DNA of 64,000 nt from Candidatus Woesearchaeota archaeon (lineage in GTDB: Archaea; Nanobdellota; Nanobdellia; SCGC-AAA011-G17; UBA489): positions 7,184 to 71,183 of the forward strand of contig JAGVZA010000014.1 of the NCBI GenBank assembly GCA_018302985.1, given 5' to 3'. Positions 5,055 to 54,073 of this stretch are shown here, in pieces. A model generated the notes under the pieces. The model was not told the origin of the DNA and did not search any database. It worked only from the letters and a program-made list of their open reading frames with translations. Made by a program: the position numbers and the translations under genes. The number at the start of each line of letters is the position of its first letter. Positions within the stretch are counted from its first letter, which is position 1.

Positions 5055-5822
5055 TTATCTCTTTGAGATCTTCCACAACTCTTCAAAATATTTTCTAAAA
5101 GAATCAGCCGTTTCTCTATCTTTAACTAGAATAATAATAGGTTCTTCTCTTCTGAATAGAATAGCAGTTATATTTCTAAAAATTAATATTTCTGTTGGTG
5201 TATAATCAAAAAGAAACCTTTTGTTATAAGTCTTTTTTAGATTTTTCTCAATTTTTGCTATGTAGTTTCTTGCGCTTTCATTGAAAATTGTTTTTATTTT
5301 AAGTCCTTTTTTAAATGCAATTCTTCCATATTTTGTATAAAACAGTTCTAATTTTCTTTCTTCTTTGCTTGTTCCAGCGCCGATAATATGAACTTCTTCA
5401 TTCTTTTTTGCCATATCTAAAAAACTAATAAAAACAGTCTCTATTCCTTTCCATCCCATAAATACTTCTACTTTTACGCTTTCCGGAATATTTTCATATT
5501 GTGATTGAAACTCTGGCATAATTTTCTCTAATTCTTTTTCTTCTTGTAAAATTTCTTCTTGTTTTTTACGAAGATAATCTCTAATTCTAACTGGCGGACC
5601 TCCCATAAAGTGTTTTACCCCATTTTTTATAATAATGCTGCATAATCCTTTATCAATTAATTTATCAGTTATTTCATAAATTTTTGAAGGAGCAATTTTA
5701 GATTCTCTGATAAGATTGCCTTTTGAAGAAGTGCCTAACTTAATCAGAGCCAGATAAACTTTTATTTCTGACTCCGTCAATCCAATCTTTCTAAGGAAAT
5801 TATAACTTATTTCTTCTTTCAT
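5055..5822 (-). CDS. TrmB family transcriptional regulator
   Basis: IGLTESEIKVYLALIKLG...KIYEITDKLIDKGL HTH plus C-terminal effector domain; ATG 5822 follows GGAGGTGA. Confidence 0.88.
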   Translation of the reverse strand: MKEEISYNFLRKIGLTESEIKVYLALIKLGTSSKGNLIRESKIAPSKIYEITDKLIDKGLCSIIIKNGVKHFMGGPPVRIRDYLRKKQEEILQEEKELEKIMPEFQSQYENIPESVKVEVFMGWKGIETVFISFLDMAKKNEEVHIIGAGTSKEERKLELFYTKYGRIAFKKGLKIKTIFNESARNYIAKIEKNLKKTYNKRFLFDYTPTEILIFRNITAILFRREEPIIILVKDRETADSFRKYFEELWKISKR

Positions 5823-5878
5823 CGTCACCTCCAAAGGGGGGGCTCTTATTTATAAATTTTTCCTTAAGATTTTACTTA

Positions 5879-6373
5879 ATGAATGAAGAAAAAGAACCAA
5901 ATGAGATACTAGTAAGTGGATTAGAATTAGCTCTGCGTCCAGCAGACGAAAGAGACATAGGTTTTTGTTACGAGTTAATGAGTCATAATATGAGGGATTT
6001 GTTTGATAGGAATACGCAAGAAAAATGGTCAAGAGCTAAATTTAGGTCAGGGTTTAGACCAGATAGAATTACAATAGTTGAGCATGAGGGAATGTCTGTT
6101 GGATTTTATGATTATGAAATTGTTGAAGCTAAATGGATATATGTACATAATCTTCACTTATCTAAAGATTATCAAACGGGCGTCGGCACCAAAATAATTA
6201 GATTAATAGAACAGGCAGCAAGAGATCGTAGCGTTAAAGCTGTAATTGCGAAGGTTTTTGCTGAAAACTCAAGAATTATTAAATGGTTACAAAGGAAGGG
6301 GTATAATCTTGGTGAGAAGATTGAACCAGAGAATTCTTATTGGGTGAAAAAAGATTTGCAGGAGATACAATGA
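5879..6373 (+). CDS. GNAT family acetyltransferase
   Basis: LRPADERD N-terminus; LHLSKDYQTGVGTKII acetyl-CoA motif A; ATGA overlap with yhhQ. Confidence 0.85.
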   Translation: MNEEKEPNEILVSGLELALRPADERDIGFCYELMSHNMRDLFDRNTQEKWSRAKFRSGFRPDRITIVEHEGMSVGFYDYEIVEAKWIYVHNLHLSKDYQTGVGTKIIRLIEQAARDRSVKAVIAKVFAENSRIIKWLQRKGYNLGEKIEPENSYWVKKDLQEIQ

Positions 6374-40826: not shown

Positions 40827-41090
40827 TTAATTTTTTCGTGAAAATCGGTAAAGAGCGCCTAAAGCAAGAACTCCAATACCTATAATACTAGCACCGATAT
40901 ATTGAGAGGCTTCATGTCTATAGATTCCTAAAGGCATTATTTCACGTGGTATTTCTGCGATCTCTGCTATATAATTAGGATCGGAATTTAAACTAGTGCT
41001 TTCAACCAACATCTCAACACCCAAAGCAATATTCAGTCCTGCAAGTACTACGTCTAATTTCGCAAGTGTGCTTTCTTCGGGAAGTTTCAT
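40827..41090 (-). CDS. Small membrane protein
   Basis: Two hydrophobic segments. Confidence 0.55.
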   Translation of the reverse strand: MKLPEESTLAKLDVVLAGLNIALGVEMLVESTSLNSDPNYIAEIAEIPREIMPLGIYRHEASQYIGASIIGIGVLALGALYRFSRKN

Positions 41091-41177
41091 AATATTGTAG
41101 TTTAAAGAAGGTTTTTAAGTCTTTCTATTATAACTACTATATAGTTAATAAATAAGGTATAATACTCTAAGAAAACC

Positions 41178-41201
41178 TTATAAATAAGCTACCAACTGGT
41201 A
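41178..41201 (+). promoter_or_regulatory. TATA box and downstream palindrome of the LAGLIDADG-suf operon
   Basis: TTATAAATA at 41178, then TACCA-AC-TGGTA at 41190-41201; ATG at 41208. Confidence 0.5.
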
Positions 41202-41207
41202 AGATAT

Positions 41208-41795
41208 ATGAAATCTCACATAAATCACCAATCTCTGGAAAACAGCCACAATGTAAGTAAACAATGGCTTCTAGGCTTTATAGAGAGTGCTGCAGTATTT
41301 AGTATTATTATCAAAAAAAGCAAAAATACTTTAGGGCAGCAAATTGTAGCAGATTTTACCATTAAATTACCAGGATCAGAAGTAGGTATCTTAGAAAAAA
41401 TAAAAGAAGTATTGCAAGCAGGTAATATTTACTATAGAAACAAAGAAACCAAAGATGAAGCAATATTAAAAGCAACAAAATTAGAAGAAGTAAAAAACAT
41501 TGTAAATTTATTCAAGCCGACAGATTTTCTCTCAGAGACAAAAAGAAAGAAGTTTGAAACATGGTCAGAGTGTATAGCTATCATAGAAAAGAAACAACAT
41601 TTAACAAAAGAAGGATTTCTCAAAATTGCATTATTGCGTGATGTGCTTAATTACAAGAAGAAGCAATGGAACAAGAAAAAGTATTGTCATGTACGTTTGG
41701 AAATTGATCCTTGTCATGTCTATCAAAAAGAAAAGAAACTCCCAGAGACTTGTCAACTTTGTTTCAAAGGGCATCTCAAGGAAGCAACACAATGA
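41208..41795 (+). CDS. Single-motif LAGLIDADG-fold protein, catalytically degenerate, with four-Cys C-terminal tail
   Basis: WLLGFIESAAVFSI, ILEKIKEVLQAG.I, K.KKFETW, HLTKEG; tail C-x8-C-x12-C-x2-C. Confidence 0.8.
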   Translation: MKSHINHQSLENSHNVSKQWLLGFIESAAVFSIIIKKSKNTLGQQIVADFTIKLPGSEVGILEKIKEVLQAGNIYYRNKETKDEAILKATKLEEVKNIVNLFKPTDFLSETKRKKFETWSECIAIIEKKQHLTKEGFLKIALLRDVLNYKKKQWNKKKYCHVRLEIDPCHVYQKEKKLPETCQLCFKGHLKEATQ

Positions 41796-43201
41796 CTGAC
41801 CAAGAATTCTGGAAGATTGATGCGGATTATTTTGAACATAAAGTTACTCAGAAGTATGAAATGCAAACAGCTCCAGGTTTAACAGAAGACACTATTCGTC
41901 AAATATCAGCAGATAAGAAAGAACCTCAATGGATGCTTGACTTTAGATTGAAATGCTTTGAGCTCTACAAAAAATTACCTATGCCTAACACTTGGCCAGA
42001 TGGTCCAGATCTCAAGGAATTAGATTTAGCTAGTATCTCTTATTATATCAAGCCAGGAACAAAAACAGAAAGTGATTGGAATAAAGTCCCGGCAGAAATT
42101 AAGAAAACATTTGAACGTTTAGGCATTCCAGAAGCTGAACGTCGTTCATTGGCAGGCGCTGGCGCGCAGTTTGAGTCAGAAGTAGTATATCATAATCTCA
42201 AGAAGCAATGGGAAGATCTTGGTGTTATATTTACTGATTGTGACGTAGCTTTGAAAGAACATGAAGAACTTTTTAGAAAACATTTCATGAAGTGTGTTCC
42301 TCCAACTTTGCATAAATTTGCAGCTTTGCATGGTGCAGTCTGGTCTGGTGGCACATTTATTTATGTTCCAAAAGGAGTCAAAGTAGGTCTGCCTCTCCAA
42401 GCATATTTCAGAATGAATGTTGCAGGTGCTGGACAATTTGAACATACTTTAATTATAGTTGATGATGGTGCAGAAGTAAATTATATCGAGGGCTGTAGTG
42501 CACCAAGTTACACAGAAAGTTCTCTCCATGCGGGTTGTGTAGAAATCTTTGTCAACAAAGGTGCTCGCGCTCGCTACTCATCCATGGAAAATTGGGCAAA
42601 GAATGTCTTTAATCTCAACACCAAGCGTGCAATCGTGGATGAAGATGGCATTATAGAGTGGGTCAATGGAAACATGGGATCAAAAACTACAATGTTATAT
42701 CCATGTTCAATCTTAAAAGGAAAAGGTGCACGTTCAGATTTCTTAGGCATCGCAGTTGCCTCCAAAGGTCAATTCCAAGATACAGGTGCAAAAGTAATTC
42801 ATGCAGCTCCTAACACAACATCTACTATTCGTTCAAAGTCTATCAGTAAAGATGGCGGCATTACAACTTATCGTGGTTTAGTACAGATAGCAAAGCAGGC
42901 AGCAAATGCAAAAGTGCATGTCCAATGTGATGCTTTAATGTTAGACGATCTCTCAAAATCAAACACTGTCCCTTACATAGATGTTGATAATAAAACCGCA
43001 GAAGTTGGTCATGAAGCAACAGTCTCCAAGATTGGTGATGAGCAATTATTTTACTTAATGTCCCGCGGTCTATCAGAAGAGCAAGCTCGGCAGATGATTG
43101 TCTCAGGATTTATTGAACCTATTATCAAAGCATTGCCTATTGAATACGCCGTCGAATTAAATCGATTAATCGAATTGGAAATGGAGAATGCTCTTGGTTA
43201 G
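41792..43201 (+). CDS. sufB: Fe-S cluster assembly protein SufB
   Basis: GAQFESEVVYH, AVWSGGTFIYVP, GQFEHTLI, YIEGCSAP, GHEATVSKI; ATGA overlap with upstream gene. Confidence 0.95.
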   Translation: MTDQEFWKIDADYFEHKVTQKYEMQTAPGLTEDTIRQISADKKEPQWMLDFRLKCFELYKKLPMPNTWPDGPDLKELDLASISYYIKPGTKTESDWNKVPAEIKKTFERLGIPEAERRSLAGAGAQFESEVVYHNLKKQWEDLGVIFTDCDVALKEHEELFRKHFMKCVPPTLHKFAALHGAVWSGGTFIYVPKGVKVGLPLQAYFRMNVAGAGQFEHTLIIVDDGAEVNYIEGCSAPSYTESSLHAGCVEIFVNKGARARYSSMENWAKNVFNLNTKRAIVDEDGIIEWVNGNMGSKTTMLYPCSILKGKGARSDFLGIAVASKGQFQDTGAKVIHAAPNTTSTIRSKSISKDGGITTYRGLVQIAKQAANAKVHVQCDALMLDDLSKSNTVPYIDVDNKTAEVGHEATVSKIGDEQLFYLMSRGLSEEQARQMIVSGFIEPIIKALPIEYAVELNRLIELEMENALG

Positions 43202-43209
43202 CAACAGCA

Positions 43210-44307
43210 ATGACACAGTTACCTTTGCCTCAACTAAAGTACGGATTGACAACATATGTTTCTCTAGAAAAATTCTCAGTAGATAAAGTAGCAAAGGCCG
43301 CTCTCACTGCTAGTCCCTATACTGCTCAAGGAGCTGAAAAGATACAAATACAAGATCTCAAAGAATTCTGGCAGTCACCAAGAGGAAAAGCAATCTTTCA
43401 AATTCTACAAAAGCAGCCAACTAATTTCATAGAAGACATCCAAAATAAAGCACTGCAGCAAGGAAAAGCAATTATCATTCCGACAAATACCATTTTAGTA
43501 AATCCAGTCTTATTGCAAAAGCATTGTACAACAACAGTAGATGCAGATACACTTATTATCATCGCAGAAAAAAACAGTCAATCTTCCATTGTAGAGTCAG
43601 TAACTTCAACAGCAGATTGTTATCTCAGAACGCAACGTTTGCATATTATTCTCGAAGAAAATGCACAATTATCTTATTGTAACGTCCAAAATTTAAATAA
43701 AAAGACTTATAATTTCATCAGCAAAACAGCAAACACAGGCAGACAAGCAAAAATCTACTGGATTGATGGTTGCTTTGGTAGCATATTCACAACATCCATG
43801 ATTCACACAACATTATCTGGAGAATTTTCTAGTATGGAAGCGGACACTATGTTTTTCTCGCAGCTAGAACAGCAATTTGATCTGGCCGTAGAAGCACAGC
43901 ATCTTGCTCCACACACAACATCAGACATGCGAACCAAAGGCGTAGGTAAGGATAGCAGTAAAACAGTCTATAGAGGCAACATCAAGATTCATGAAAATGC
44001 CCATAACAGCGTCGGATATCAAAAAGAAGATACTTTAATCTTAAGCGATAATGCAACAGTAGATGCCATTCCTAAATTAGAAATTGACAATCATGATGTT
44101 AAATGCAAGCATGGTGCTACAGTCGGTCAAATCGATCGTGAAAAAGTATTTTATTTAACATCCCGTGGATTAAGTGATGGAGAAGCGCAAGCAACTATCG
44201 TCCGAGGTTTCTTTGCTCCCATCATTCAAAAGATTAACGCAGAAGAATTAAAAGAACGTCTCCATGAAGAGATTGAAGAAAAAACTGCATTCCTAATCGA
44301 ACAATGA
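43210..44307 (+). CDS. sufD: Fe-S cluster assembly protein SufD
   Basis: Beta-helix repeats; IPKLEIDNHDVKCKHGATVGQID...FYL.SRG. Confidence 0.92.
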   Translation: MTQLPLPQLKYGLTTYVSLEKFSVDKVAKAALTASPYTAQGAEKIQIQDLKEFWQSPRGKAIFQILQKQPTNFIEDIQNKALQQGKAIIIPTNTILVNPVLLQKHCTTTVDADTLIIIAEKNSQSSIVESVTSTADCYLRTQRLHIILEENAQLSYCNVQNLNKKTYNFISKTANTGRQAKIYWIDGCFGSIFTTSMIHTTLSGEFSSMEADTMFFSQLEQQFDLAVEAQHLAPHTTSDMRTKGVGKDSSKTVYRGNIKIHENAHNSVGYQKEDTLILSDNATVDAIPKLEIDNHDVKCKHGATVGQIDREKVFYLTSRGLSDGEAQATIVRGFFAPIIQKINAEELKERLHEEIEEKTAFLIEQ

Positions 44308-45521
44308 AAACGCTAATTCCAAAAGAAATCAAGAATGATTTTCCTATTTTCAAAAGAAAGATCCATGGTAAGTCATTAGTCTATCTAGACAGTGCTTCCA
44401 GTTCACAAAAGCCAAAGCAAGTAATCGAAGCATTAAGCAACTATTATGAAAAGATGCATGCTAATATCCATCGTGGAATTTATACCTTGAGTGAAGAAGC
44501 TACATTAGCTTATGAAGATGCACACAGAAAAGTTGCTCGTTTGATCAATGCAAAATTCAAAGAAATCATTTTTACAAAAAATACTACAGAAAGTATAAAC
44601 CTCTTAGCATATAGTCTTGGATTAGAATTGAAGAAAGGTGATGAGATACTTTTGACAGAAATGGAGCATCATGCTAATCTCGTCCCATGGCAGCAAATTG
44701 CAAAACGTGTTGGTGCAGTTGTTAAATTTATCAAAGTGAATAAAGAGGGAGAATTAATAGTAGATGAGCAGCTTTTCACAAAGAAAACAAAAATAGTTGC
44801 AGTTACTCACATTTCCAATGTTCTCGGAACAATTAATCCCATTGCAGAAATTATCGGTAAAGGACATAAAGTAGGTGCGAAAGTTGTTATTGATGCAGCT
44901 CAAAGTATTCCACACATGCCTTTCGACGTCAAGGCGTTAGATGCAGATTTCGTTGCTTTCTCCAGTCACAAAATGCTAGGCCCAACTGGTATCGGTGTCT
45001 TATATGGCAAGCAAGAACTCTTAGAACAAATGACTCCATTTCTCTACGGCGGAGATATGATCAAAGAAGTAACTTTAGAAGACAGTACCTTCAATGACTT
45101 GCCTTGGAAATTCGAAGCTGGAACTCCTAACATTGCTGGTGGTATTGCTTTTGGAACAGCAGTGGAATATTTAACTAACATTGGTATGCATAACATCGAG
45201 CAGCATGATAAAGAACTTTTAAAATATGCTCATGAACAATTGTCCAAGGTAAAAGGAATAACTATCTATGGTCCAAAAGATCTAAAGAAAAAGTCAAGCA
45301 TCATCGCATTCAACTTTGAAGATATTCATCCTCATGATGTTTCTTCTATTCTAGATACAGAAGGTATTGCTATTCGTGGTGGACATCATTGTGCTATGCC
45401 TCTGATGAAAATATTAAACTTGCAGTCAAGCTGTCGTCTCTCATTGTACTTATACAACACAACCGAAGACATTGATGCTCTCGTAAAAGCTTTGGAAAAA
45501 GTCAGGAAGGTGTTCAAGTAA
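44304..45521 (+). CDS. sufS: Cysteine desulfurase SufS
   Basis: YLDSASSSQKP, NIHRG, MEHHAN, FSSHKMLGPTG, RGGHHCA. Confidence 0.95.
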   Translation: MKTLIPKEIKNDFPIFKRKIHGKSLVYLDSASSSQKPKQVIEALSNYYEKMHANIHRGIYTLSEEATLAYEDAHRKVARLINAKFKEIIFTKNTTESINLLAYSLGLELKKGDEILLTEMEHHANLVPWQQIAKRVGAVVKFIKVNKEGELIVDEQLFTKKTKIVAVTHISNVLGTINPIAEIIGKGHKVGAKVVIDAAQSIPHMPFDVKALDADFVAFSSHKMLGPTGIGVLYGKQELLEQMTPFLYGGDMIKEVTLEDSTFNDLPWKFEAGTPNIAGGIAFGTAVEYLTNIGMHNIEQHDKELLKYAHEQLSKVKGITIYGPKDLKKKSSIIAFNFEDIHPHDVSSILDTEGIAIRGGHHCAMPLMKILNLQSSCRLSLYLYNTTEDIDALVKALEKVRKVFK

Positions 45522-45522
45522 C

Positions 45523-45915
45523 ATGGACATGTATATGGAAGAGATTTTGGAACATTACAAGCATCCACGAAATAAAGGAACTATAACTAATCCAGACATT
45601 CAATTTAAAGATCAAAATACTTTATGTGGTGATGAAATCCAAGTCTATTTGAAACTAGATAAGAAGAAAATGATCACAGATATAAAAACTGAAGGAAAAG
45701 GCTGTGCTATTTCCCAAGCTGCAGCTAGTATGTTAACAGATGCGGTGAAAGGAAAAACTATAGAAGAAGCCAGAAAATTGAAAAATGAGTTTGTCTTTGA
45801 CTTGTTACAAATTCAACTAAGTCCAGTCAGAGTTAAATGTGCATTATTAGCCTTATTCGCTGTCAAAAAAGGAATCTACAAATATTTAGGAGAGCATTAC
45901 CATGACGAAGAATAA
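45523..45915 (+). CDS. sufU: SufU/IscU-type scaffold or sulfurtransferase
   Basis: ILEHYKHPRN, NTLCGD, GCAISQA, RVKCA. Confidence 0.92.
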   Translation: MDMYMEEILEHYKHPRNKGTITNPDIQFKDQNTLCGDEIQVYLKLDKKKMITDIKTEGKGCAISQAAASMLTDAVKGKTIEEARKLKNEFVFDLLQIQLSPVRVKCALLALFAVKKGIYKYLGEHYHDEE

Positions 45916-46642
45916 ACTCCTCATCCAAATCAAAGATTTAGAAGTAACTATTGACGGAAAAGAAATATTAAAAGGTGTTAATTTAGAAGTCAATGAAGGA
46001 GAAGTAGCTGTCTTAATGGGTCCTAACGGTTCTGGTAAATCAACACTCTCTTTTGCTTTAATGGGTCATCCCAAATATATAATCACCAAAGGATCAATCA
46101 TCTATAAAGGAGAGAATATCACAAAGATATCTCCAACAGAACGTTCCAAAAAAGGAATGTTTTTGTCTTTCCAATATCCTAGTGAGATTGCTGGAGTCAC
46201 TATTGCTAACTTTCTAAGAACTGCATTGAATGCGCGTCGCAAAGAAAAATTAAATCCTCTAGAGTTCAGAAAAATGTTAAAGGAAAAAATGAAAGAACTC
46301 CACTTTGACGAACAATTCGCTAACCGTTATTTGAACGAAGGATTCTCTGGTGGAGAGAAGAAAAAAGCAGAAATGCTTCAATTAGCAGTGTTACAGCCAA
46401 CCTTAGCTATTTTAGATGAAACTGATTCTGGCACTGATGTGGACGCGTTAAAAATTATTGGGAATACTATCAAAGCTATCCAAAAAGAAACCAAGATGAC
46501 TGTGTTAATCATTACGCATTATAATAGAATTCTCCAATATCTTGATGTAGACAAAGTGTATGTCATGGAACAGGGAAAAATAACTCGTTCTGGCGATGTA
46601 AAGTTAGCGCATGAGATTGAGAAGACTGGTTATAAAAAATAG
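45902..46642 (+). CDS. sufC: Fe-S assembly ABC ATPase SufC
   Basis: GPNGSGKS, NEGFSGGEKKK, ILDETDSG. Confidence 0.95.
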   Translation: MTKNKLLIQIKDLEVTIDGKEILKGVNLEVNEGEVAVLMGPNGSGKSTLSFALMGHPKYIITKGSIIYKGENITKISPTERSKKGMFLSFQYPSEIAGVTIANFLRTALNARRKEKLNPLEFRKMLKEKMKELHFDEQFANRYLNEGFSGGEKKKAEMLQLAVLQPTLAILDETDSGTDVDALKIIGNTIKAIQKETKMTVLIITHYNRILQYLDVDKVYVMEQGKITRSGDVKLAHEIEKTGYKK

Positions 46643-53619: not shown

Positions 53620-53704
53620 AGAACTACTCTCTCAAAGACGTTTTTAAGAGTTATCATCTAGAGAGAACAATAGATTTATAAATACTACTAAATAGTAACA
53701 GCTT

Positions 53705-54073
53705 ATGAAAGATCTAACAAAAAATTTCTTATGGGCTGCAGGTACAGTAGTTGCAAGTTACCTCAGTTACCAATTTGGTGCAATTTACCGTCCTTTTACT
53801 GGTGGGTCTATGTTTGTTTCAAATGGGATAATCAATCCAACACTCCGAGAAAGAGTTCAAACTAGAGCAGATCTAAATGGCAATTGTAATGGTCAACCTG
53901 ATGTAGCTGAAATGGTAGATATTTGGCAACGTGCTGGATATTCCTTAAGTTTCAATCCAGAACATCGTCTTGTTGCGCAACGAGGAACAGAAACAATTGT
54001 TTTTGGAAATGAATTCAAAGATCCTCAATTGAGTAATGCAGATTTAGAAAAAGTTCTAGCAAGTTATAAATAA
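53705..54073 (+). CDS. Secreted or membrane-anchored hypothetical protein
   Basis: N-terminal hydrophobic segment; EF-hand-like DLNGNCNGQPDVAE. Confidence 0.6.
   Translation: MKDLTKNFLWAAGTVVASYLSYQFGAIYRPFTGGSMFVSNGIINPTLRERVQTRADLNGNCNGQPDVAEMVDIWQRAGYSLSFNPEHRLVAQRGTETIVFGNEFKDPQLSNADLEKVLASYK

Follow-up and report, generated by a model that had tools for sequence, protein, structure and literature searches.

WhiA (DUF199) is a gene regulator with a LAGLIDADG fold that has lost its catalytic acids, and it also controls its own gene (PMC3384342). It is the only described regulator derived from a LAGLIDADG protein, and DNA reading was apparently passed to its HTH domain. The protein reported here is encoded in a window of 64,000 nucleotides (the whole stretch of DNA that was analyzed, from an ultra-small Candidatus Woesearchaeota archaeon) and resembles WhiA in that a LAGLIDADG fold without catalytic acids appears to be used for regulation. 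However, WhiA is a monomer with two LAGLIDADG domains and a C-terminal HTH thought to read DNA, and its beta-sheet surface is not like that of homing endonucleases, whereas the window protein has one domain, no HTH, conserved DNA-contact strands, a tail with four cysteines (Cys4), an archaeal host and apparently one target operon. When Pfam and NCBIfam were searched, the window protein gave no match to the WhiA family.

Among the regulators of Fe-S assembly, the cyanobacterial and actinobacterial SufR (COG2345) represses suf and binds a [4Fe-4S] cluster, and IscR (Rrf2) carries a [2Fe-2S] cluster (PMC6034842; bioRxiv 10.64898/2025.12.26.696629). The window protein shares with both a position at the head of or beside an Fe-S assembly operon, a palindromic operator in its own promoter and a C-terminal Cys module. 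It differs in lacking a winged HTH, an AT-hook and sequence similarity to either protein, and in its Cys spacing. Feedback by cluster occupancy is known for SufR and IscR and is only proposed here. We regard the window protein as an analogue rather than a homologue of these regulators, with Fe-S binding being inferred.

I-TevI, the GIY-YIG homing endonuclease of phage T4, represses transcription without cutting, through an operator that overlaps its own promoter and to which it binds (PMC3384342). Binding at its own promoter is what makes this homing endonuclease comparable; in contrast to the window protein, I-TevI has another fold, is still active and mobile, has no sensor module and regulates only itself. 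The homodimers I-TnaI, I-CreI and I-Vdi141I and the monomers of the I-OnuI family have the same fold as the window protein. The target expected for a homodimeric LAGLIDADG endonuclease, a pseudo-palindrome of roughly 22 bp with a tolerant central four, corresponds to the footprint observed here. Unlike these endonucleases, the window gene is inherited vertically with suf, is not located in an intron or intein, has lost the catalytic acid and has gained a Cys4 tail.

No paper describing a LAGLIDADG-Cys4 regulator was found in the literature searched, and for the regulation of archaeal Fe-S biogenesis the same search gave only the bacterial SufR, IscR and RisR, with nothing on DPANN. Archaeal control of Fe-S cluster biogenesis is hardly known, and this locus supplies a candidate regulator together with a candidate operator. 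If the reading proposed below is true, it would represent a second route of domestication, in which the LAGLIDADG saddle itself reads a palindrome as a homodimer, and a new kind of transcription-factor head that replaces the HTH regulator of sister lineages. It would also offer protein engineers a natural meganuclease scaffold that is nuclease-dead and can be switched by a ligand or cluster.

Fold, motif and tail of the first suf gene

The LAGLIDADG-Cys4 gene (41208-41795, plus strand) is the first gene of the suf operon and encodes a single-domain protein of 195 aa. When the protein was searched against Pfam, LAGLIDADG_1 (PF00961) was matched over residues 21-122 (E=1.9e-12; 48.4 bits against a cut-off of 23.1 bits). 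This was the only family above threshold, with no HTH domain among the Pfam hits, and a search of the whole protein against NCBIfam gave no match. The AlphaFold2 model has pLDDT >90 over about residues 21-140, and its best Foldseek match is the homodimeric I-TnaI (5gkk; TM 0.85 on target). The nearest solved relatives of the domain are the halves of I-PanMI, I-OnuI and I-LtrI. The fold is thus shown, and the LAGLIDADG fold is not known to us in any role except that of a nucleic-acid-binding module. By analogy with other one-motif LAGLIDADG proteins, the protein is presumably a homodimer, an inference drawn from the fold.

Alignment to I-PanMI and I-OnuI places the LAGLIDADG motif at residues 23-31 (41274-41300, plus strand). 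It reads GFIESAAVF (G23 F24 I25 E26 S27 A28 A29 in its first seven residues), where I-PanMI, I-OnuI and I-LtrI have GFVDGEGSF or GFVDAEGCF. The acidic residue at position 8 of the motif binds the catalytic metal. In the window protein this position is Ala28 (41289-41291) and the Gly of position 9 is Ala29, so the D or E required of an active LAGLIDADG homing endonuclease is missing. The loss of the acid is shown; that the protein is nuclease-dead is presumed from sequence alone.

The C-terminal tail (residues 152-186, WNKKKYC160HVRLEIDPC169HVYQKEKKLPETC182QLC185F; 41661-41765, plus strand) is a candidate metal or Fe-S sensor module. Its cysteines, Cys160 (41685-41687), Cys169 (41712-41714), Cys182 (41751-41753) and Cys185 (41760-41762), form the pattern C-x8-C-x12-C-x2-C. 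Each of them is at least 90% conserved among 16 divergent representatives, and the only departure from the pattern is a C-x4-C in P0029. The tail has no confident fold in the AlphaFold2 model (pLDDT <50). No usable match to it was found in PDB or Pfam, and thus no homology to a known cluster site. A Cys4 site containing CxxC would suit structural zinc equally well. Stability and dimerization of the LAGLIDADG fold do not depend on such a tail, which I-TnaI and the I-CreI-type enzymes lack.

The TGA of the gene (41793-41795) overlaps the ATG of sufB (41792-41794) in the tetranucleotide ATGA at 41792-41795. The start of sufB (41792-43201) is confirmed by its first 28 residues, which are 100% identical to those of an ortholog. 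It is followed on the same plus strand by sufD (43210-44307), sufS (44304-45521), sufU/NifU_N (45523-45915) and sufC (45902-46642), all assigned from orthologous operons with Pfam labels. These four genes are tightly packed and therefore presumably co-transcribed. There is no intron inside the operon.

The promoter and its candidate operator

The core promoter (41170-41185, plus strand) consists of a BRE-like AGAAAACC followed by the TATA box TTATAAAT (41178-41185). It lies in an upstream block conserved in 10 orthologous loci with the consensus AGAAAsCyTTATAAATAAG. With the center of the TATA box about 26 nt upstream of the ATG, the mRNA is inferred to be leaderless; this rests on archaeal promoter geometry alone, without transcript data. 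A scan for bacterial sigma-70 promoters and terminators is uninformative for an archaeon.

The gap between the TATA box and the start codon is filled by a 22-bp pseudo-palindrome, AAGCTACCA-AC-TGGTAAGATAT (41186-41207), which is the candidate operator. Its core, TACCA-AC-TGGTA at 41190-41201, is strongly conserved. When the ten orthologous loci were compared, the TATA box, the palindrome and the leaderless ATG were the sole upstream DNA that they share. In these close loci, the flanks of the palindrome are invariant and the central 2-4 bp are variable, the pattern expected for the 'central four' of a LAGLIDADG target. The distant ortholog lineages all carry related palindromes at the same position. 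An inverted repeat with arms of at least 5 bp, at the same position and related in sequence, was observed in 8 of 9 family lineage representatives, compared with a background rate of 19% among 641 upstream 30-nt windows of the source genome.

Perfect matches to the operator occur once per genome in each of three genomes. Matches with up to two mismatches were no more common in the three genomes than those of a reversed-pattern control, and a wider regulon was thus not detected. Because the operator is unique in these genomes, the protein looks like a local autoregulator. The footprint and its uniqueness are shown; binding of the protein to it is inferred. A look-alike with four mismatches (TATA + CTACTAAATAGTAAC + ATG, about 53672-53707) lies before the ORF at 53705-54073, which is about what is expected by chance.

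The original prediction, made from the sequence of this stretch, had described the lost catalytic acid and following Gly (as GFIESAAV), the tail C-x8-C-x12-C-x2-C, the ATGA overlap and two palindromes, and these statements held with small corrections: the lost residues are Ala28 and Ala29, the four cysteines were located, and the conserved footprint has as its core TACCA-AC-TGGTA, which the prediction had placed directly after the TATA box. The range given in the prediction opens at 41178, where the TATA box begins; the ORF itself begins at 41208. Its second palindrome, TAACTA-N5-TAGTTA, held in part: TAACTA-CTATA-TAGTTA is present at 41131-41147 and is shared only with loci L002 and L019. It was rejected as a second operator, being missing from the other 8 of the 10 close loci, and probably belongs to the divergent promoter of an 87-aa ORF (40827-41090, minus strand).

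Linkage, selection and the XRE-HTH-Cys family

In all 19 distinct loci (down to 43% identity), the LAGLIDADG-Cys4 gene is located immediately 5' of an Fe-S assembly gene, which is sufB in 14 loci and encodes a NifS-like desulfurase in 5, and an overlap of its stop with the start of the next gene is usual. Orthologs are without exception beside suf or nifS/nifU. When the identities of LAGLIDADG-Cys4 and SufB were paired by ortholog (82/96, 79/93, 76/87, 54/65 and 46/62%), the two were found to track each other, which points to vertical co-inheritance and not mobility. The gene is under purifying selection, with dN/dS of 0.04-0.14 at dS of 0.16-3.4. The DNA-contact strands beta1 and beta2 (conservation 0.72 and 0.65) are as conserved as the LAGLIDADG helix (0.70).

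The original prediction had named linkage to sufB with invariant cysteines as a check, and orthologs unlinked to suf or without the cysteines, or a dN/dS near 1 indicating a decaying element, as refutations. The check was run and gave linkage to suf or nifS/nifU with cysteines at least 90% conserved; neither of these refutations was seen (dN/dS 0.04-0.14). Its idea of a suf-operon regulator built from a homing endonuclease is therefore supported, with the reservation that only the context suggests an Fe-S cluster in the tail and zinc is not excluded.

The family is small, with about 12 clusters at 50% identity when 1.84 billion representatives were searched; a scan of genome contigs gave only 4 loci. 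Motif position 8 is E only in basal members linked to nifS and is otherwise S, N, A, G or Q. The suf-linked members form a clade (21 rows, support 98/99) without an acid at this position, and the outgroups in the tree join among nifS-linked members with an intact GFIEGEG. One GFIEGEG-bearing member, P0040, has a perfect operator of the HTH type upstream (site AATTAACAGCTGTTAATT). The members that keep GFIEGEG could still cleave DNA.

In 42 of the 61 sampled genomes of the order, suf or nifS operons are headed by an XRE-HTH protein with a Cys/His tail (C-x2-[H/C]-x9-10-C-x2-C). No paper describing such proteins at Woesearchaeales Fe-S operons was found in the literature searched. Their genomic position is the same as that of the LAGLIDADG-Cys4 gene, and their promoters have the same layout of TATA, palindrome and leaderless ATG. 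The operators are related, TTAAC-N4-GTTAA in the HTH family and ACTTAAC-N4-AGTAAGT or CTACYA-N2-TRGTAAG in the LAGLIDADG family, and the C-terminal tails are similar (...C-x12/13-([ILV]P)xxC-x2-C[FLM]). The heads differ: the XRE-type HTH (PF01381) is present in the XRE-HTH-Cys family and absent from the window protein, which has a LAGLIDADG domain instead. As the operators are similar although the heads are unrelated, the operator could instead be read by the tail itself or by some further factor.

The two families are mutually exclusive across genomes. The XRE-HTH-Cys protein is missing from all four genomes with the LAGLIDADG-Cys4 protein (the source genome, G000, and three others; Fisher p about 0.005, from our own arithmetic on the genome counts). 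G000 is only 88% complete, and the missing HTH gene there alone would be weak evidence. Rrf2/IscR (PF02082) was found neither in the window protein nor in the whole genome G000, while the positive control was found in 14 of 14 control genomes.

When the profiles of both families were compared using hhalign, the sole match was tail to tail (E 2.8e-4, probability 41%). With tails only, the score was 18.9, a value that none of 300 column shuffles reached (the highest gave 13.2), but the probability was 7.5%. The similarity is short (28-32 columns), its hhalign probability is only 7-41%, and the two runs pair different cysteines. Convergence of the Cys motifs is possible. The exclusion of the XRE-HTH family, together with the resemblance of tail and operator, suggests that the head was replaced non-orthologously, with sensor and operator kept. 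Such a head swap is rarely documented, and plausible intermediates are extant here.

Proposed mechanism and rival explanations

The reading that we consider likely is that a domesticated, nuclease-dead LAGLIDADG homodimer acts as a local autorepressor of the regulator-sufBDSUC operon, with the Cys tail sensing Fe-S; that the protein binds DNA, in which direction it regulates and which metal it holds are all matters of inference. The protein would pair as a homodimer like other one-motif LAGLIDADG proteins, as inferred from the fold, and the conserved beta-sheet saddle of the dimer would read the 22-bp pseudo-palindrome at 41186-41207. A dimer bound there would have the TATA box on one side and the transcription start on the other and should keep TFB and RNA polymerase from being recruited, an inference from position. 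The Cys4 tail is the putative signal input and, somewhat more likely than not, ligates an Fe-S cluster supplied by the machinery that the operon encodes. By the feedback logic of SufR and IscR, the holo-protein would repress and the apo-protein would release. The LAGLIDADG domain would have displaced the DNA-binding head of the order's standard XRE-HTH-Cys family, with a similar tail and a related operator being kept.

A bolder reading, which as a whole we hold only tentatively and would not favor, is that an endonuclease hijacked a transcription factor by homing into the HTH operator and then replaced the HTH head. A homodimeric LAGLIDADG endonuclease with TTAAC-N4-GTTAA as its homing target would have inserted at an XRE-HTH-Cys promoter. 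The HTH head would have been replaced, and the Cys sensor tail of the regulator kept or fused in frame. Catalysis would then have been lost, turning the endonuclease into a repressor, and protein and operator would afterwards have co-evolved in the series HTH-type, ACTTAAC-N4-AGTAAGT and CTACYA-N2-TRGTAAG. The intermediates may be the grade of nifS-linked GFIEGEG members, including P0040 with its perfect HTH-type operator. If true, this would give a compact natural LAGLIDADG head whose reading of DNA is under the control of a metal cluster.

The rivals bear on the autorepressor with an Fe-S-sensing tail. The strongest keeps the DNA-binding autoregulator and takes the Cys4 tail as a structural zinc site only (a zinc-ribbon-like dimerization or DNA-clamp element), which implies plain negative autoregulation or another signal without Fe-S sensing. 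In its favor, a CxxC knuckle closes the window tail, and that of the HTH family (CxxH/C...CxxC) resembles a zinc ribbon; no similarity to a known Fe-S sensor motif or family was found in Pfam, NCBIfam and PDB searches, and AlphaFold2 gave no confident tail fold. However, the LAGLIDADG fold needs no tail for stability or dimerization (I-TnaI, I-CreI-type), and a similar tail is found on two unrelated heads solely at Fe-S operons, of both SUF and NifS/NifU types. Because of that restricted distribution, a signal module fits better than a structural prop. We consider this rival improbable. For the tail itself, an Fe-S sensor, which is inferred from context only, is just slightly preferred to a structural zinc site.

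The second rival denies a regulatory role. On this view, the protein either assists Fe-S assembly, with Cys4 carrying a cluster or sulfur, or binds RNA in the manner of a maturase, and a different factor reads the conserved palindrome. The gene is presumably co-transcribed with the assembly genes, and similar operators occur at promoters headed by the unrelated HTH protein, which makes a third, shared factor conceivable. However, the fold is known only as a nucleic-acid binder and the DNA-contact strands are among the best-conserved parts of the family. In addition, the HTH family has the standard layout of an autoregulator, and G000 has no HTH-Cys or Rrf2 candidate able to read the site. The operon is free of introns, and the palindrome is upstream of the inferred transcription start, so it would lie outside the RNA. 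This rival is regarded as highly improbable.

The weakest rival can be almost ruled out. It takes the gene as a selfish, free-standing homing endonuclease gene, either active or in decay, that happens to lie in front of conserved Fe-S genes (which are well-known intein hosts). In its favor, the domain is most closely related to homing endonucleases of the I-OnuI type, SufB and SufS of these archaea commonly contain inteins with LAGLIDADG endonucleases, and GFIEGEG is retained in basal members. However, the whole suf-linked clade lacks the catalytic acid, so that a homodimer would have no active site, dN/dS is 0.04-0.14 with divergence in step with SufB, the stop-start overlap and the promoter footprint are conserved, the palindrome beside the gene is intact and conserved with no disrupted homing site, and no mobile-element behavior is seen, the gene being always first in an Fe-S operon and not in an intron or intein.

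LAGLIDADG proteins of roughly 170-200 aa in 20 of 401 genomes of the phylum were rejected as members of the family. They belong to another family, with an intact motif and no Cys tail (ADNQQERLD...GFVDGEGCF...ESSETIR), and are probably rRNA-intron endonucleases.

The suf-linked LAGLIDADG gene and its relatives

The window protein is encoded by a 195-aa ORF (41208-41795, + strand) whose TGA stop (41793-41795) overlaps the ATG of sufB (41792-41794); sufB, sufD, sufS, sufU and sufC follow, tightly packed, as far as 46642. The source assembly is ~1.04 Mb in 24 contigs and 88 % complete, and close homologues of the protein are labelled Candidatus Woesearchaeota (DPANN group). Pfam gave a PF00961 (LAGLIDADG_1) match at residues 21-122 (E-value 1.9e-12). 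The nearest sequences were single halves of the meganucleases I-PanMI, I-OnuI and I-LtrI, and the top Foldseek match was the homodimeric I-TnaI (5gkk; TM 0.85 on target). Whereas those meganucleases read GFVDGEGSF or GFVDAEGCF, the window protein reads G23-F-I-E-S-A28-A29-V-F, with Ala28 at motif position 8, where they have the metal-binding acid, and Ala29 instead of the next Gly. It belongs to the LAGLIDADG fold family but, judging from this motif, is not an active homing endonuclease. Its tail, C-x8-C-x12-C-x2-C, comprises Cys160, Cys169, Cys182 and Cys185; structure prediction gave no confident model of this part.

When 5.8 billion proteins were searched, 33 relatives of similar length were found (42-95 % identical). 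An HMM run exhaustively against 1.84 billion cluster representatives matched only ~12 clusters through the tail, and all the remaining matches were two-domain I-OnuI-type endonucleases aligned over the domain only. W20, G23, F24, E26, Q45, F50, K53, K88, T90, C160, C169 and C182 are invariant in the family alignment and C185 is nearly so, the exception being the relative P0029, with C-x4-C.

Nineteen distinct loci of the LAGLIDADG-Cys4 gene were recovered, and in most of them its stop overlaps or abuts the start of the next gene. In 14 loci it lies 5' of sufB-sufD-sufS-sufU-sufC, directly except in L002/L019 and L017, where an extra small ORF separates it from sufB. The inserted ORFs of these two lineages (6585-7040 in L002/L019; 3586-4065 in L017) are unrelated and without Pfam match; that of L002 encodes 151 aa and overlaps the stop codon of the LAGLIDADG gene. 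The other five loci (relatives P0029, P0032, P0033, P0040 and P0041) have the gene directly 5' of a NifS/IscS-like cysteine desulfurase, with NifU next in both of those reaching far enough downstream. The MAG carrying P0033 (GCA_964529655.1; L007/L013/L033) bears the NCBI title 'uncultured Methanosarcinales archaeon'; in the genome collection searched it (as G347) shares the class of the window's genome, which suggests a mistaken public label.

Locus by locus, identity of the LAGLIDADG protein paralleled SufB identity (82/96, 79/93, 76/87, 54/65, 56/62 and 46/62 %), as predicted by vertical co-inheritance. The original prediction, a suf regulator made from a homing endonuclease, would have been refuted by relatives unlinked to suf or lacking the Cys, or by a decaying element with dN/dS near 1. 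Linkage held, all 19 loci being 5' of a suf or nifS-like gene, as did the conserved tail Cys, and pairwise dN/dS among ten close orthologs was 0.04-0.14. Thus, none of these sequence-testable criteria refutes it.

Promoter and putative operator

The 160 nt upstream of the gene were aligned for ten orthologs with 76-95 % protein identity and largely saturated synonymous sites. The sole alignable block, of ~40 bp (AGAAAsCyTTATAAATAAGCTACyAwnTrGTAAGATAyATG), consists of a BRE/TATA element, a 22-bp pseudo-palindrome and the start codon. The pseudo-palindrome (41186-41207), a putative operator, extends one of two palindromes named in the original prediction. Both were confirmed in the window; the second (41131-41147) is common to L002/L019 only and is probably unrelated. 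The TATA centre is ~26 nt from the ATG, therefore the mRNA should be leaderless, and the pseudo-palindrome fills the interval between them. Judging from this geometry, a protein bound there should keep the transcription initiation complex from assembling. Among the ten orthologs the flanks are fixed and the innermost 2-4 bp variable. We would expect this pattern at the site of a LAGLIDADG dimer, as such dimers contact few bases within the 'central four'.

Distant orthologs have cognate palindromes in the same position: ACTTAAC-N4-(C)AGTAAGT (L005, L008, L009, L022, L023 and L094), AAGTTAC-N6-GTAACTT (L007) and AATTAACAGCTGTTAATT (L093). Inverted repeats with >=5-bp arms were present in 8/9 lineage representatives of the family, against a background of 19 % of 641 upstream 30-nt windows in the window's own genome. 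Three gene-carrying genomes each contained exactly one perfect match to the operator consensus, and 2-mismatch matches in them were no commoner than matches to the reversed pattern, giving no sign of a wider regulon. The window protein therefore appears to be a regulator dedicated to its own locus.

A look-alike, TTTATAAATA-CTACTAAATAGTAAC-AGCTT-ATG (53672-53707), with the TATA-palindrome-ATG layout of the suf promoter, lies upstream of an ORF (53705-54073, +) for a 122-aa protein of unknown function adjoining a P-type ATPase. Its core equals the operator of the L011 ortholog; it differs from the 20-bp pattern at 4 positions, and chance alone should give about one such match placed at a promoter. 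At the distant ortholog locus L005, a 259-aa LAGLIDADG_3 gene (5093-5872) and an apparent tRNA 3' end (..GGTTCGAATCC..; about 5900-5950) immediately precede the regulator's promoter.

An XRE-HTH family with a similar tail

Elsewhere in the order, the first gene of the suf or nifS/nifU operon encodes a 105-137-aa XRE-type HTH (PF01381) protein ending in C-x2-[H/C]-x9-10-C-x2-C, some members having a further Cys nine residues upstream. These loci (L057-L070, L087-L090; suf or nifS-nifU(-hesB) operons) are absent from the window. Their promoters share the layout of the LAGLIDADG loci: TATA box, palindrome (A)ATTAAC-N4-GTTAAT(T) and leaderless ATG. Of the 61 genomes sampled from the order, 42 have the HTH family, and the other genus sampled within the window's own family is represented among them. 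By inference, the HTH family probably provides the standard Fe-S regulator in these archaea. It was not found in the window's genome (88 % complete), which also encodes no Rrf2/IscR protein in the assembled part, or in three further genomes carrying the LAGLIDADG protein (0/4 vs 42/60 genomes; Fisher p ~0.005).

The HTH-family motif includes [ILV]-P-x2-C-x2-C-[FLM], a close counterpart of the window protein's L-P-E-T-C-Q-L-C-F. In profile-profile comparison, the sole match between the two families was tail-to-tail (E-value 2.8e-4; probability 41 %), and the tails alone scored 18.9 against a maximum of 13.2 in 300 column-shuffled controls. The similarity rests on ~30 columns; a shared, or at least convergent, module is possible and suggested but not proven.

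Proposed mechanism and origin

Every functional claim about the window protein is inferred, and there is no transcript evidence. As the fold suggests, the single-domain protein would act as a homodimer whose beta-saddle may bind the 22-bp pseudo-palindrome; conservation of beta1 and beta2 is on a par with that of the LAGLIDADG helix. Occupation of the site between TATA box and start would block initiation of regulator-sufBDSUC, a predicted negative autoregulation. By analogy with SufR/IscR, the Cys4 tail would be loaded with an Fe-S cluster by the machinery that the operon encodes, and the holo-protein would repress. Fe-S sensing was inferred from this analogy and from the restriction of the tail, which is found on two unrelated heads, to Fe-S operons. 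Sequence alone does not identify the metal; a structural zinc remains a serious rival, and we lean only slightly towards an Fe-S cluster.

The window protein is not WhiA, which has two domains plus an HTH, nor a member of SufR (COG2345), which it may resemble in working, or of IscR (Rrf2). It is built like I-CreI/I-TnaI-type dimers but dead. WhiA and I-TevI autorepression (PMC3384342) are precedents for endonucleases as regulators. Full-text literature searches brought up no account of a LAGLIDADG protein regulating Fe-S assembly, nor of either the LAGLIDADG-Cys4 or the XRE-HTH-Cys family. The protein would combine known kinds, a domesticated LAGLIDADG and an Fe-S-operon autorepressor, with an unusual inferred head-swap history.

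The maximum-likelihood tree places the suf-linked proteins in one clade with good support (98/99); at motif position 8 they have S, N, A or G, and none has an acidic residue. GFIEGEG is kept in P0029, P0031, P0032, P0040 and P0041, nifS-linked wherever the context is known. Outgroups attached within the grade of these members; the rooting is tentative because outgroup branches are long. P0040 has both the intact motif and a perfect operator of the HTH type. Given this grade and this combination, the most economical history, subject to the rooting, is that a LAGLIDADG protein took over the promoter, operator and perhaps sensor tail of an HTH regulator at a nifS operon. It would then have moved to, or been retained at, suf, lost the catalytic acid and co-evolved with its operator.

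A separate, well conserved single-domain LAGLIDADG family (L034-L048; 20/401 genomes of the phylum) reads ..ADNQQERLD.WIVGFVDGEGCFHV...LESSETIRQ, with the catalytic motif intact and no Cys tail. Without recourse to genomic context, we regard its members as likely rRNA-intron homing endonucleases. Inteins are common in Fe-S genes of these archaea (L005 8966-11614; L016 4292-5403; L072-L085): an 882-aa SufS matches both Intein_splicing and LAGLIDADG_3, and many genomes of the order have SufB reading frames of 830-1278 aa in which the match is broken into 2-3 pieces.
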